Both the position numbers and the translations under genes were made by a program. Shown piece by piece: positions 33,870-39,970 of a stretch of DNA of 64,000 nucleotides. The DNA is taken from assembly GCA_964016885.1 (NCBI GenBank), contig OZ024741.1, forward strand, positions 175,336,001-175,400,000, written 5' to 3'. Positions within the stretch are counted from its first letter, which is position 1. Each line of letters starts with the position of its first letter. Source of the DNA: Eledone cirrhosa (lineage: Eukaryota). Under the pieces are notes generated by a model. It saw nothing but the letters and a program-made list of their open reading frames with translations, was not told where the DNA came from and did not search any database.

Positions 33870-34345
33870 GTAGATCCCAAGTAAAATCACAGTTATAAAA
33901 GGTACTCAATACATTAATAGAGTGTAAACATAATTATTTAATATATAACATCATTATTTAATATATAACGGCGGTGGATTGGCAGTATCGGTAGAAGGTC
34001 GGACGCCATGTTTTCCAGCATAGTTACGCCCCTTTACGATCTGAGTTCAAATCCCGCCGAGGTTGACTTTGCCTTTCATCCTTACGGGGTCGATAAAATA
34101 AAGTACCAGTAATGCACTGGGTAATTGCTGGCCTTGTGCCTAAAGTAGAAACAATTATTTAATATATAACTGACTTCTACAGGACAAGAACTGTTTCATT
34201 CGAATGACACCCCCCGCTTTTGTATGTTCATTGTAACTATGGGTCAGTAGATCAACTTCATATGGAATGACACCTTCTTTTGGATGTTAGAACATCCAAA
34301 AGAAGGTGTCCTGCAGAAACCATTTCTATATTAAATAATGATATA
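33870..34345. mobile_element. Fold-back PLE/HHR terminus containing 63-bp satellite sequence and interrupted by a SINE
   Basis: Minus-strand GAATGAAACAGTTCTTGTCCTGTAGAAG tail matches 52995-53150; satellite at 34202-34310; plus-strand tail at 34308-34345. Confidence 0.7.
33970..34156 (+). mobile_element. Full-length young SINE with 17-bp TSD
   Basis: ATTATTTAATATATAAC at 33953-33969 and 34154-34170; A/B boxes. Confidence 0.92.
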
Positions 34346-34351
34346 TATAAA

Positions 34352-34617
34352 TAATTGTTTCTACTTTTGGCACAAGGCCAGCAATTAGCTAGTACATTAC
34401 AGGTACTTTATTTTATCGACCCCATAAGGTTGAAAGGCAAAGTTAATCTGGGCGGGATTTGAACTCAGACCGTAAAGGGACGTAACTATGCTGGAAAGCA
34501 TGGCGTCCGACTCTCTACAAATACTGCCAATCCACCGCCCTATATAAATAATTGTTTCTACTTTTGGCACAAGGCCAGCAATTACCCAGTGTATTACTGG
34601 TACTTTATTTTATCGAC
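34352..34617 (-). mobile_element. SINE full copy (34352-34538) plus 3' fragment (34549-34617)
   Basis: Reverse complement of the 33970 SINE. Confidence 0.88.
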
Positions 34618-34691
34618 ATATATATATATATATATATACATAGTGAAAGCAGCGAATCTTTGGTTAAAGTTTAATCTATAAATAAATATAT

Positions 34692-34937
34692 CACCTTCAC
34701 CGGCCAGTCTGTCGGGCGCCGCTGGTCACAGCACGTCGTGCTGTTTTAGCCATAAGATAACGCCATCCCACTGGATGGGCGGGCAGGCTGTATTCATTTC
34801 TACAGCTGAGTAAACTGGAGCAACGTTAAATAAAGTGTCTTGCTCAAGGAAACAACACATCACTCGGTCCGAGAATTGAACTCACAACCTTTCGATTGCA
34901 AGCCCAAAGCTTTAACCACTAAGCCACGCGCCTTCAC
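34692..34937 (-). mobile_element. Second tRNA-derived SINE family
   Basis: Minus strand GGCGCGTGGCTTAGTGGTTAAAGC..GTTCAATTCTC then CCTTGAGCAAGACACTTT; related relic at 61590-61688. Confidence 0.8.
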
Positions 34938-35845
34938 AATATATATATAGAATTACAAAATAAGAGGAAATAATACATAAAAATATACCTATTTTTTCTT
35001 CAAAGTCCTGACTGCACAGTTTCGCATTATAGAAATGCACCATTGTTGTCAGGCTTGTCAAGGAACACCTCAGAGAAAAGGACTATTTTCCAAACGCGTT
35101 TGTCGCAAAGGAGAAAATCTTTATAGGCGGAGGGAGGAATTAACATGTGATACATCGGTCAAGAAAAAGTTCTGTTTACCATGCAGCAAGTGAAAATATC
35201 TCAGAAGGCGGAGTGAGAAATTAATGCATGATAGAGAGATTACAGGCGGCTAGTAAGTTAGACAGAAAGTGACTATCGTATCTGCTAGAGAAAGCAGTTA
35301 GTACACTTTCGTGTTAACTCGACCATAGGGGAGTTTGAGACAATGTAACAATGACACACACACACACACACACACACACACACACACACACACACACACA
35401 CACACACACACACACACACACACACACACACACACACACACACACACACGCGCACACACACACACACACACACACACGCCCCCCCACATACCCCCCACAC
35501 ACATATATTTTCGCATGTGTGCATGGTGTCAACCTCAACCAGTGTTGCGCGATGATCGAAAGAGCTAAAATAATGGAAATAATTAAAATAACTCGATAAT
35601 CAGAGCTATATATATATATATATATATATATATACTATATTTTAATACATATATATATATATATATATATATATATAATATATATCTATCTATATATATA
35701 TATATATATATATATATATATATATATATAAAATATATATATATATATAATACTGTTCAGAGCATGTTCTACTCATGTCATACATATATTAGATATATAT
35801 ATCATATATATCATATATTATATATATACATATATATATATATTA

Positions 35846-36724
35846 TCTATATATATATAAAACTGTGGTTGTCTGTCTGTCTATCGATTTTTGGCACACA
35901 TTTCCTCTTAGAATCTCTCACGGAATTGCACCGAAATTGCTATACTTGTACATTGAGCCCTAGCGAAGACATCGGGAAAAAAAAATTTCAAATTGACCCA
36001 CCCTATGTGACGAAATCGAATATAATGTATCGATTTTTGAGCGTAAGTTATCAGTTATTTCCCTTTGTTCTGTTTACATTGAGCGTCTTACGTAAAAAAT
36101 TACGCTGGCTTTAACAGTTGTCGAGCCAGCAAAATATTGACCTGCAAAATTCATCAGTTCGAACACTAAGTTTCCGTTTTGCTTCATTTCCATTTAAAAG
36201 CATTTTAAAACAATATTTTTACTTGAAAACAAGTCTATTTAAAGACTACGTAAAACAAGCAAATATTTCGTCGTTAGGCGTGCAGACAGACAGTCGTGCA
36301 GACAGACAGTCGTGCAGAGAGGTGATATACGCGTGCAGACAGACAGTCGTGCAGAGAGGTGATATAGGCGTGCAGACAGACAGTCGTGCAGAGAGGTGAT
36401 ATAGGCGTGCAGACAGACATAACTGATAATTTGGTTACGCTAATGTTTTTCTCTGCGTTGCAGTGTTTACATTTTCGATCTTTGTTAATAAATAACCAGT
36501 GCAGTTTCTATCCCCAGCATCCTCTTTTGTTATAACATTCGGGTTATCGTTATGTTTTCTTAACTTCATAAGGCATATTGTTGGTTGAGGGAATATTAAT
36601 CAAAAACACCACATGCAAGTCTGCACAGTAGACACTACAGTTTTTAAGCCAAGAAAGAAACTTAACATTGTAACTTTAACACAGCTACTGAGCGACCTCG
36701 AGCAACGCCGGGCTTTACTGCTAG
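35846..36724 (+). mobile_element. Non-autonomous Helitron with internal ~37-bp tandem repeat (36277-36420)
   Basis: A|TC 5' start, GTCTGTCTGTCT, 3' GC hairpin CCTCGAGCAACGCCGGG then CTAG|T. Confidence 0.82.
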
Positions 36725-37084
36725 TATATTATATATATATATTATATATATATATTATATATATATATATATTATATATATATATATATATATATATATA
36801 TATATATATATATATATATATATATATATATATATATATATATATATATATTTATATATATATATATTATATATTTTATATATACATATATATATAGATA
36901 CGTATATATATATATATATATATATATATATATATATATATGTATATATATATATGTATATATATAACAACTTGATTTATCTTAATTTTGGATATAGATA
37001 TATATGTATATATATATATATATATATACATATATATATATGTATATGTATATAAATATCTGGAGATATATATATACATATACA

Positions 37085-37300
37085 TGCTTTATATCTGGAG
37101 ATCTCTCCGCACTTGTCGTCACATGGTACCATGGGCCCAGCACCATGTGTCAATAATTGTCACAAGTGTAGTGTTTGTACCAGAGTTTTCAAGTCGCTGG
37201 CTGGACTAAAAAGCCACACTCGTTCAGCGCATCGGTAGGGTTTCTCCTACATGGATATAAAGTAGTGGCCGTACTCGAAAACGAGTTGGCAACCACCATA
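37085..37300 (+). mobile_element. RTE-like 3' end with C2H2 finger
   Basis: Homologous to 16144-16350. Confidence 0.7.
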
Positions 37301-37960: not shown

Positions 37961-38140
37961 GTTTATGTGCAGAAGTATATATATATATATATATATATAT
38001 GTGTACTGACATATGGATATATATATATGTACTGACATATGGATATATATATATATGTACTGACATATGGATATATATATATATATATATATATATATAT
38101 ATATATATATATATATATATATATATATATATATATATAT

Positions 38141-38322
38141 AACAACGAAGATCTGGTAAGATACCAGGTGGACCAAAATGCACCAGAGTACTCGATACAT
38201 AGAGTAGTAGCATGCGCAAAAGGAAAAGAGTCAGGACCCCGACGGCTGAGCTTCGGCCGTTTCAGATGTAGCTGTCGAAATTGCAGGAGCTCGGCCGTCG
38301 GGAGTCCTGACTCTTTTCCTAT
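38141..38322. mobile_element. Diverged relative of the palindromic half-HHR mini-element
   Basis: AGGAAAAGAGTCAGGACCCCGACGGC..GCCGTCGGGAGTCCTGACTCTTTTCCT inverted arms; tail homologous to 38344-38430. Confidence 0.7.
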
Positions 38323-38343
38323 ATATATATATATATATATATA

Positions 38344-38535
38344 TAACGAAGGAAATGTGGTAAGGAACCAGGTGGACCACAACGCATCAAAGTACTCAAT
38401 ACTTAGGGTAGTAGAGTGGGTAATAGGAACGAGTAGGACCCCGACGGCTGAGCTCAAGCCGTTTCGACGGCTAATTCTGGACTCAGAATTAGCCGTCGAA
38501 ACGGCTTGAGCTCAGCCGTCGGGGTCCTACTCGTT
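38344..38535. mobile_element. Palindromic half-hammerhead mini-element (copy 2)
   Basis: Arms 38428-38479 / 38484-38535. Confidence 0.8.
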
Positions 38536-38705
38536 TCTCTCCCCCTCTCTCTCTCTCTCTCTCTCTCTCTCTCTCTCTCTCTCTCTCTCTCTCTCTATAT
38601 ATATATATATATATATATATATATATATATATATATATATACATTTATATATATATATACAGGGACGAACAATAAGTCAATTGCATGAACTCATAATCCT
38701 TTATT

Positions 38706-38763
38706 TACTGCTATATATATTTCGATGATAGCCATTGAATGGCTATGACCTCATCAGGCAGTT
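38706..38763 (-). ncRNA. Minimal type I HHR in an orphan non-coding element (about 38660-39285)
   Basis: ACTGC-CTGATGA-GGTCATAGCCAT TCA ATGGCTATCATC-GAAA-TATATA-TA/GCAGT. Confidence 0.82.
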
Positions 38764-39457
38764 AGTCAGTTCTTAGATATGCCAGCTCTGTGTTTATAGT
38801 GTTGATGGTATCAGAGCCTTGGGACATATGAGCTTGTTAGGAATAATTTAATGTTGTCAGCAGGAATAGTCTTAATTCTCATTGGTCAGTTTGTAGATGC
38901 TAGTAGGGTAGGGTTGCTATTTGACCTCAAAGAGGCAGGTGGTGTTGTAAAGTTCAAACCGTCAGGCAAGATGACAATAGTTCCATATGACTGATTTTCA
39001 CACAAAGCATTCCTGGTCAGATATATATTCAATTATGGTTAATAGTATGAAATAAATACTACAGGTCATTCTTAAATTGAGGAATTTATGTGGAGTGGTG
39101 CTACTGAAAATTATGGTTAGAGTAAAAAATTTACAAATTAAAAGACTTATGTAGGTTGGCTTGTACGTCCACTCACACCCACCTCCCCATCCACGCACAC
39201 ACATCCACACATACAAATTGAGGAATTAATGTGGGGGTGGTAATACTTAAAATAATGGTTAGAGTCAAATACTTAGATAGTTTAGAATATATATATATAT
39301 ATATATATATATATATATATATATATATATATATATATATATATATATATATATATATATATATATATAAATATATATATATATATATATAGGTAGAACA
39401 CTGGAAGGTAATATCCGTAGTGGTAGAGCACTCAGTCCATGGGACGAGTTAGGTAGA

Positions 39458-39970
39458 AGTGGTAACACAACAGTTAGTTCACCATACCGAGAATAATTGT
39501 TTCACCTTAGCGGTTCCTCAGCTCGTACTGGTCATGGTAGATCAACTTGATATGGAAATTCCAGACATGTGGACCACGTGAGAAGATTTCATTTCTTGAA
39601 TTTAGGCAATCTCTATTCCGTAATCTCCTTAGAATATTTATCCTTTCTTCAATACACAGTCCACTCGACGGATTGCCGCGAGCGTATGGTTAGGAAACAC
39701 CTCTTGCATAACTACAAAGCTCCGGATTGAATAACAATAACATTCTAATTTTCTTATCAACTCGAACATTTTTTCCGACTTTTGCAGTTATCTCCCTTAC
39801 AGCTTTCGCCCGTGGCTTCGCATCGCTTGGGTGAAGTGACCGTTTCTGCGCACGCGCGTTCACAAGGTTGTTCTTCCTGTTCCGTATAACTATGACCATT
39901 ACGAGGTGAGGATCCGCTAAGGTGCAACAATTGTTCTCGGTATGGTGAACTAACTGTTGTGTTACCACTT
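39458..39970. mobile_element. Rearranged 3' end of the 8445-10370 PLE subfamily with two HHR copies (39481-39532 -, 39895-39946 + degenerate)
   Basis: 39560-39688 is the reverse complement of about 9970-10090; 39692-39970 matches 10088-10368. Confidence 0.8.

Follow-up and report, generated by a model that had tools for sequence, protein, structure and literature searches.

Two fragments of a nearby 63-bp minisatellite at the inner junctions of two PLE insertions in Eledone cirrhosa

The window analysed here is a stretch of 64,000 nucleotides from Eledone cirrhosa (assembly GCA_964016885.1, contig OZ024741.1, positions 175,336,001 to 175,400,000, forward strand). It contains insertions of two families of Penelope-like elements (PLEs), PLE-A and PLE-B, and a tandem array with a 63-bp unit, pieces of which lie inside both insertions. 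Hammerheads are predicted, and coordinates are window positions.

33860..33952, minus strand: PLE-A left arm, long-tail part with a microsatellite at its end, matching the family tail past the short end
33970..34153, plus strand: later SINE within the PLE-A left arm, with a 17-bp target duplication (33953-33969 / 34154-34170)
34156..34202, minus strand: PLE-A left arm, 3' half of the hammerhead and short tail, cut off in stem II; 43/47 identical to the family majority
34202..34288, plus strand: satellite piece 1, about 1.4 units across unit junctions
34291..34310, minus strand: 20-bp fold-back copy of 34269-34288 with the identical 3-nt deletion, leading back to PLE-A via GTC
34308..34345, plus strand: PLE-A right arm (short tail), 35/37 identical to the majority
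about 34345-34540: second SINE, inverted, after the PLE-A right arm
39392..39538, minus strand: PLE-B inverted arm, long tail and complete hammerhead, 94% identical to reference 1594-1510; inner end just 5' of the core
39537..39557, plus strand: satellite piece 2, 21 nt, unit positions 42-62
39559..39689, minus strand: PLE-B inverted internal piece, reference 1317-1187, in twin-priming-like geometry
39693..39973, plus strand: PLE-B direct arm, reference 1314 to the tail, with hammerhead; 5' end similar to the array unit junction
43625..46900, minus strand: decayed Ty3/Gypsy-like element holding the array, with many stops and frameshifts (RVT_1 E 1.3e-5; Ty3 RT E 1e-5 to 4e-5)
43941..44948, plus strand: 63-bp minisatellite of 16 units, single locus, putative donor of both pieces

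The first-pass annotation of this DNA had called the two insertions unrelated. This holds for the tails, which have no DNA in common, but not for the reverse transcriptases (RTs), which are 40% identical. The RT and endonuclease frames are broken and gave no Pfam match; the clusters nearest to the RT carry RVT_1 (17%) and HTH_animal, and those nearest to the C-terminal part carry GIY-YIG (31%). Another PLE-B copy (8784-10371) is collinear with the PLE-B tail, and PLE-A is provisionally linked to its coding part by collinear spacing at two other loci (L207 and L115); at least 2,713 copies of the PLE-A motif are present in the genome. A type I hammerhead was predicted in the terminal repeat (core CTGANGA...GAAA, stems II and III read from the family sequences); no hammerhead match in Rfam reached the gathering score. 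Copies of both families have long and short tails and (TA)n targets, and near-perfect palindromic centres are frequent among them. A head-to-head structure is the norm: 77 of 119 other PLE loci have an inverted arm no more than 60 nt from the 5' end. In this sample at least six pairs represent the same insertion, and the probes favoured hammerhead-containing copies.

In the PLE-A insertion, the left arm breaks off in stem II of the predicted hammerhead, and the right arm restarts at a GTC common to the hairpin. The intervening piece 1 aligned to the array over 90 columns with 87.8% identity and a 3-nt deletion (E 3e-27), which bears out the earlier reading of about 1.4 diverged units starting at the stem II break of an inverted hammerhead. 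Its entry point is a 12-bp palindrome (34196-34207). Seven differences are private to the piece, and one to three are in common with single-unit relatives. Because piece 1 crosses unit junctions, its template must already have been tandem. The perfect 20-bp hairpin reported previously was recovered: 34269-34310 is self-complementary at 40/42 positions, with AG between the arms. The rejoining through a shared GTC was also found; however, by-eye reading of the family majority places this GTC in the stem III loop and not at the predicted cleavage triplet.

Piece 2 matched the array at 21 of 21 positions. As claimed before, it bridges non-contiguous PLE-B pieces near the hammerhead, namely the inverted tail (reference 1594-1510, predicted core at 1527) and the inverted piece 1317-1187. 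It overlaps the inverted arm by 2 nt, and its final bases are TGGAA. All 14 exact genomic matches of the 21-mer lie inside the window. The long tail of the inverted arm was also seen at L089, L095, and L104, and the same split geometry, free of foreign DNA, at L109 and L112. Reads mapped to 39395-40700 came mostly from other PLE copies. At the level of the assembly, the two satellite pieces were confirmed as genuine, each at the inner (5') junction of an ordinary head-to-head PLE insertion.

The first-pass annotation placed the parent array 4-10 kb from the pieces, and it was found 4.4 and 9.7 kb from the two insertions. The best solved-structure matches of the RT of its host element were Ty3 RT, the RVT_1 match being under the Pfam cut-off, and the element is broken near 45015-45195 by a short interspersed repeat with more than 1,000 candidate copies. 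One relative (L025) contains a single unit continuous with both flanks, and another (L194) has a single unit with the same flanks. The flanks of the array are thus native, Gypsy-like on both sides, and contain neither a PLE tail nor a target duplication. Judged by these alignments, the array arose locally, through tandem expansion of one 63-bp internal segment of the decayed Ty3/Gypsy-like element, and this segment was probably duplicated stepwise as DNA. Variants are arranged in blocks, units 11-12 recurring as 15-16, and 1 kb of array holds 15 unit-unit junctions. Neither PLE contains the 63-mer, contrary to a possible refutation raised at the outset, that it was simply internal to a PLE consensus. 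No hammerhead core was found in the unit on either strand, nor any Rfam match, and its predicted fold (-20.5 and -23.8 kcal/mol) was no stronger than that of shuffles (-24.6 and -25.8 kcal/mol).

These properties bear on the proposal of the first-pass annotation that a 63-nt small or circular RNA may be an abundant template used in trans by PLE RTs, and that the array itself could have arisen by reiterative reverse transcription. The proposal would account for the same sequence in two different PLE families, and PLE-derived tandem retrozymes are described in the available part of one report (10.64898/2026.07.22.740005). Yet three exact or near-exact unit patterns gave 14, 15, and 16 matches in 3.0 Gb, all within the window (pieces under about 17 nt, or with changes at the probed positions, would escape these patterns), and the two pieces were the only array matches of at least 13 nt in 464 kb around it, so that they are not chance resemblances. 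Dispersed copies at many loci, as a circular-RNA satellite would have, were not found, and array DNA was present at 0 of the 119 other PLE loci. Since the array has no flanking PLE ends and no hammerhead core, and its variants are repeated in blocks and do not point to a single template, reiterative reverse transcription and a diffusible circular RNA are both unsupported. The strong form of the proposal is largely refuted by the single-locus status; as a whole we consider it highly improbable, and the suggested satellite-retroelement partnership is not upheld for an array that is Gypsy-derived and confined to one locus.

It might also be supposed that the pieces are leftovers of an array that was formerly longer and was broken up by nested insertions. 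They are indeed collinear on the plus strand, and piece 2 stops one base before the first base of the array in unit phase. On the other hand, the array has a native left flank, which runs on into unit 1 in relatives, and the pieces adjoin the inner 5' ends of the PLE arms, not their target-side tails. This origin has very little probability.

Comparable captures were sought elsewhere. Neither array DNA nor a clear foreign patch was found at the 77 other inverted-arm loci. Among 47 hammerhead-tail inner ends in 664 kb, a locally templated insert was present at three and at none of the other 44. At nine junctions (L090, L098, L109, L112, L166, L199, L215, L219, and L222), the spacer or the sequence adjacent on the 5' side, compared with the surrounding 40 kb of each, was self-derived, AT-rich, or unmatched. 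Given these 44 ends and nine junctions, local capture into PLE junctions is a rare process, represented by two events at one locus that were recognised post hoc. As donors, other arrays contributed little: a 32-bp x 26 array gave no strays, and a 15-kb array (32-bp x 477) gave one within 20 kb, about 200 bp from the array edge. Short two-copy matches in 464 kb were in excess at distances under 2 kb alone, with 11 against 0.5 expected, most of them inverted element ends when inspected by eye; at 2-20 kb there were nine against five expected, by eye element fragments. Two further observations were made: at L219 there is one 30-nt match (87%) about 14 kb off, and a single 100-bp piece of a 50-bp satellite lies 1.1 kb from it.

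The junctions themselves are rich in microhomology. The PLE-B inversion breakpoint matches the array unit-unit junction at 12 of 14 nt and ranks first of about 1,580 cDNA 3' ends for pairing with the array; with both strands counted it is second of 3,158, behind an end at the same site. The 15 array junctions are the 15 best of the 246 landing sites within 20 kb. The 7 nt past TGGAA, absent from the insert, match 1 of 1,580 PLE-B positions. The PLE-A match, 6 nt between hammerhead stem II and the unit junction, is modest (rank 34-41 of 608). Exits from the satellite pieces show 2-3 nt of microhomology, and the junction palindromes of 6 and 5 bp occurred in 0.2% and 0.6% of simulated joins. Microhomology is the likely explanation of the double capture: one array may have been used twice because its unit junction, present in 15 copies, resembles both PLE ends.

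Of the sources suggested for the pieces by the first-pass annotation, capture of a nearby DNA template is the one supported by the strict locality, the position between two cDNA-type segments, and the homology-guided entry. We think it probable that the pieces were copied from array DNA during PLE integration, after stalled cDNA ends had paired with the array via short chance matches. Judging from the junction geometry, capture likely took place in the same event as the PLE insertion. The PLE protein, which is reported to nick and extend both strands (PMC11167929, available sections), would nick and prime both strands of the (TA)n target. In PLE-B, the right cDNA would halt after about 280 nt, and its 3' end would pair with the plus strand of the array at a unit junction and be extended by about 16-21 nt. 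The left cDNA would come to a stop at the hammerhead 5' edge, copy this extension through the 2-nt overlap, and then restart on PLE RNA at the stopping point of the right cDNA, in a twin-priming-like manner. In PLE-A, the growing strand at the head-to-head join would exit the PLE at GAATGA, copy 87 nt of the array, snap back on itself for 20 nt, and re-enter the PLE at GTC, 10 nt further on. According to this model, which also supplies the template strand, the two events would have used opposite array strands, as DNA permits.

The template switches could be made by the PLE RT or by a host polymerase (Pol theta-like). A more specific version is that the PLE RT itself takes stalled cDNA ends into duplex DNA kilobases off, pairs them by 3'-end microhomology, copies the donor, and returns to RNA, so that two-ended twin-priming integration leaves scars recording which nearby DNA, in this case an unstable minisatellite, was open during the event. 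We regard this version as possible but rather doubtful.

Alternatively, plain-palindrome PLE insertions may have broken at the centre later, through a cruciform, and been patched with array DNA by host microhomology-mediated repair. Piece 1 could equally be derived from such post-integration mending: it lies at the centre of a head-to-head palindrome, of a kind frequent in these families, takes the place of 10 nt of the right arm, and finishes with a fold-back. Piece 2, however, has its end precisely at the twin-priming-like breakpoint, and the additional 7 matching nt correspond to the cDNA end of the other arm, a state existing during integration alone; the 77 unpatched inverted-arm loci also argue against later repair, which we consider unlikely. 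A jump of the RT onto a nascent array transcript still tethered near its locus would likewise produce locality. On a naive reading all three satellite segments extend the cDNA strand as array plus, with a template in the Gypsy sense, and both L1 and R2 are known to form chimeric inserts out of two RNAs (PMC11702581, PMC11371274; available sections). But the strongest homology pairs the PLE-B cDNA with the array plus strand, the opposite polarity; the host element is decayed, and the fold-back is DNA-templated in any case. We give this reading a small chance.

If the pieces were copied from array DNA during integration, the two scars bear on how PLEs complete integration and why inverted repeats end them; the integration steps after priming are left unvalidated in PMC11167929, as far as its available sections go. 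The scars yield a testable order of events: tail priming at both ends, a stall at the hammerhead 5' edge, a homology-guided switch to local DNA, and a restart on RNA at the stop of the other cDNA. They also suggest one small route for the local spread of minisatellite sequence. They provide no evidence for a new satellite-RNA system.

Neither capture of local DNA nor twin priming has been described for PLEs in the literature searched, with subscription papers, including older Penelope work, thinly covered; the comparisons that follow draw on the available sections of each source. Accounts of EN+ PLEs (PMC8557442, PMC11167929) describe head-to-head arms, long and short tails, a terminal-repeat hammerhead, and (TA)n targets as seen here, but for the inner junction those sections mention neither foreign local DNA nor a third piece of twin-priming-like type. 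Non-LTR retrozymes (10.64898/2026.07.22.740005) are likewise tandem repeats tied to PLE machinery, whereas the 63-bp unit lacks both a hammerhead and similarity to PLEs and is confined to one locus. In origin the array resembles Ty3/gypsy-derived tandem repeats (PMC3648361), which also stem from an internal element segment; here there are 16 units at one locus. R2 5' junctions of the snap-back and 'extra template' type (PMC11371274) are similar in that, ahead of joining, the cDNA 3' end primes synthesis on its own strand or on rDNA close by, although the extra templates are mostly U6 RNA entered from its 3' end, and entry here would be internal and homology-guided. The extra 5' nucleotides of the ZfL2-2 LINE (PMC4245944, PMC2666801) are also filler from local DNA acquired via annealing or template jump; they derive from the immediate flanks where the 5' end joins the target, whereas the present pieces lie between two element arms and probably come from kilobases off. 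L1 insertions can carry sequence templated from DNA near the site, with twin-primed inversions, template switches, and junction microhomology (PMC11702581). In contrast to L1, the PLEs would have been primed from the tail at both ends, and a tandem donor 4-10 kb off would have been used twice, leaving germ-line fossils. By analogy with L1, ZfL2-2, and R2, these locally templated insertion scars likely belong to an already known kind.

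BLAST of three units of the 63-bp minisatellite against the window recovered three matches beyond the array, in agreement with the segments described in the first-pass annotation. The array and these segments, with the insertions of two Penelope-like element (PLE) families carrying them, are:

43941-44948: minisatellite array, 16 units of 63 bp, 97% matches
34202-34288: piece 1, in the PLE-A insertion; 87.8% identity, E 3e-27
34291-34310: fold-back, inverted 20-mer
39537-39557: 21-mer, in the PLE-B insertion; identical to the array at 21/21 positions
PLE-A insertion: long-tail left arm and short-tail right arm, each later entered by a SINE
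PLE-B insertion: inverted tail (reference 1594-1510), 21-mer, inverted piece (1317-1187), direct arm from 1314

Across a 464-kb region with the window at its centre, only these segments match the array exactly over at least 13 nt outside it. The array is single-locus: the 3.0-Gb assembly holds 14 exact matches of the 21-mer, 15 of a 17-mer that bridges two units and 16 of a 30-nt pattern (at most two mismatches), every one of them inside the window (G000:C2:175336001-175400000). One PLE-A motif has 2,713 exact matches in the genome. With PLE families of thousands of copies, a diffusible template should have left array copies elsewhere too; the genome-wide search suggested earlier for the 63-mer thus speaks against the abundant small RNA template that had been suggested. 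The unit also falls outside the retrozymes: no hammerhead core was found in it and its fold was no better than those of shuffles, which leaves a retrozyme-like or circular-RNA reading unsupported.

On its left the array is bordered by an old repeat family with 8 matches away from the locus (70-77%). In one member of this family (L025) the flank runs on across just one unit (78%) and then into the sequence that forms the right flank of the array; a single unit is present in L194 as well. Read with X at stops, the host element matches RVT_1 (E 1.3e-5), and its best solved match is the Ty3 RT. Given these single units and RT matches, the array is a tandem expansion within a decayed Ty3/Gypsy-like copy. 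Unit variants are grouped in runs (units 2-6; units 7-9 and 13-14) and units 11-12 reappear as units 15-16, a pattern that would be expected under stepwise DNA duplication but not if a single 63-nt template had been copied over and over. The array edges show neither a PLE tail nor a target duplication, and origin by reiterative reverse transcription, as first suggested, is not borne out. Where it departs from today's array, piece 1 agrees at one base with L025 and L194 alike and at two further bases with L194, a weak hint that it was possibly copied from an older state of the array. Elsewhere in the window (30988-32333), two broken frames of a PIF1-type helicase (E 1.6e-65) are probably a Helitron remnant.

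Both PLE insertions are small, head-to-head and located in (TA)n. Short palindromic elements, nested, also lie in (TA)n at 38116-38550, with further copies at 3631-3873, 48708-48960 and 55084-55448. The PLE-A arms depart from the majority sequence of their family at 4/47 and 2/37 positions, and the PLE-B insertion differs from a long copy (L091) at 34/494. Head-to-head architecture is the norm for these families: an inverted arm lies no more than 60 nt from the 5' end in 77 of 119 other loci (16/29, 20/30, 19/30, 22/30), a set that includes at least six pairs representing one and the same insertion. A 13-mer of the array occurs in 0/119 of these loci. The PLE literature describes inverted arms and two tail lengths (PMC8557442), and purified PLE protein nicking and extending both strands from two start sites, homology not being needed (PMC11167929). 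Of the first 30 PLE-B loci, three (L109, L112 and window 39454-39973) have a three-piece, twin-priming-like geometry, which in L109 and L112 includes no foreign DNA; in all three the inverted arm jumps to the direct arm's start position.

Several further observations concern PLE-A. Among PLE-A copies (L115-L144; also window 57521-57649), 27/30 start within reference positions 156-179, the hammerhead's 5' edge (the core is at 167 and cleavage is predicted after 205). The probe needed positions 180-209, making copies that begin at the cleavage site invisible. The start often takes the form of a short palindrome that links two arms. This clustering points to an RNA with a fixed 5' end or to an RT stop ahead of an uncleaved ribozyme. 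Tandem inverted tails at L201/L202, connected by a repeated 40-47 nt segment past the long tail, are consistent with repeated template jumps. A possible cross-family join is seen at L203 (1522 onward), where a PLE-A arm stands head-to-head with an element of an apparently different family that also occurs at window 1129-1770. One SINE family struck each arm of the window's PLE-A insertion independently, at the AT-rich tail (33970-34153 and 34345-34540, matching a third copy at 97% and 91%), pointing to SINE target preference.

The unit-unit junction reads TGGAA-TG-ACACCTC, found only in the tandem form of the unit, and PLE-B at its breakpoint reads TGGAA-ACACCTC. All possible 16-nt 3' ends of the PLE-B reference were scored for how well they pair with the array. 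The cDNA end actually observed ranked 2 of 3,158, with rank 1 taken by this site on the other strand, and of the 246 sites within 20 kb at which that end could pair, the 15 best were the 15 array junctions. The 7 nt following TGGAA match at 1/1,580 PLE-B reference positions and at 17/1,521 TGGAA sites in 664 kb; being absent from the insert, they are independent evidence. The PLE-A signal is weaker: the word GAATGA, in common with the unit junction, ranks 34-41 of 608. Junction palindromes of 6 bp and 5 bp arise in only 0.2% and 0.6% of simulated joins, respectively, and are accounted for by inversion at a microhomology.

We propose, as the likely course of events, that cDNA ends stalled, annealed to the array and were lengthened along it, PLE-B on the + strand and PLE-A on the - strand. 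Use of opposite strands would fit DNA better than one RNA, and nascent RNA in cis is an unlikely template. The fold-back carries the same 3-nt deletion as its partner segment and so was copied from the nascent strand; piece 1 could otherwise reflect later repair of a palindrome.

Local capture of this kind is rare. A scan of 664 kb covered 47 hammerhead-tail inner ends from five families; foreign local DNA of at least 16 nt was found at three, all from the two insertions described here, and the scan misses short or diverged inserts and donors also present farther away. Other scan rows listed were, by eye, same-family copies or low-complexity. Counted by tail cluster, capture was seen in 2/6 of those lying up to 20 kb from the array vs 0/27 elsewhere. 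No comparable shed pieces were found for other arrays, one of 15 kb included, and no clear local donor emerged for nine further junctions; arrays are thus not general donors, and this one happens to match. Nearby on the same contig are a 50-bp satellite (about 175,155,500-175,178,500; 23 kb, internal duplication 9.4 kb), with one stray 100-bp piece 1.1 kb off, and a 15-kb array of a 32-bp unit (about 175,610,500-175,625,800).

The case for capture comes from one locus, read post hoc. The pieces are real and non-random, and are explained as one more case of an already known type of insertion scar; they have some value as fossils of PLE integration intermediates. No PLE example of such local capture was found in the literature, subscription journals being thinly covered. 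L1 is alike in templated genomic-DNA inserts and template switches at insertions (PMC11702581), ZfL2-2 in extra nucleotides, there flank-derived (PMC4245944, PMC2666801), and R2 in snap-back junctions (PMC11371274).
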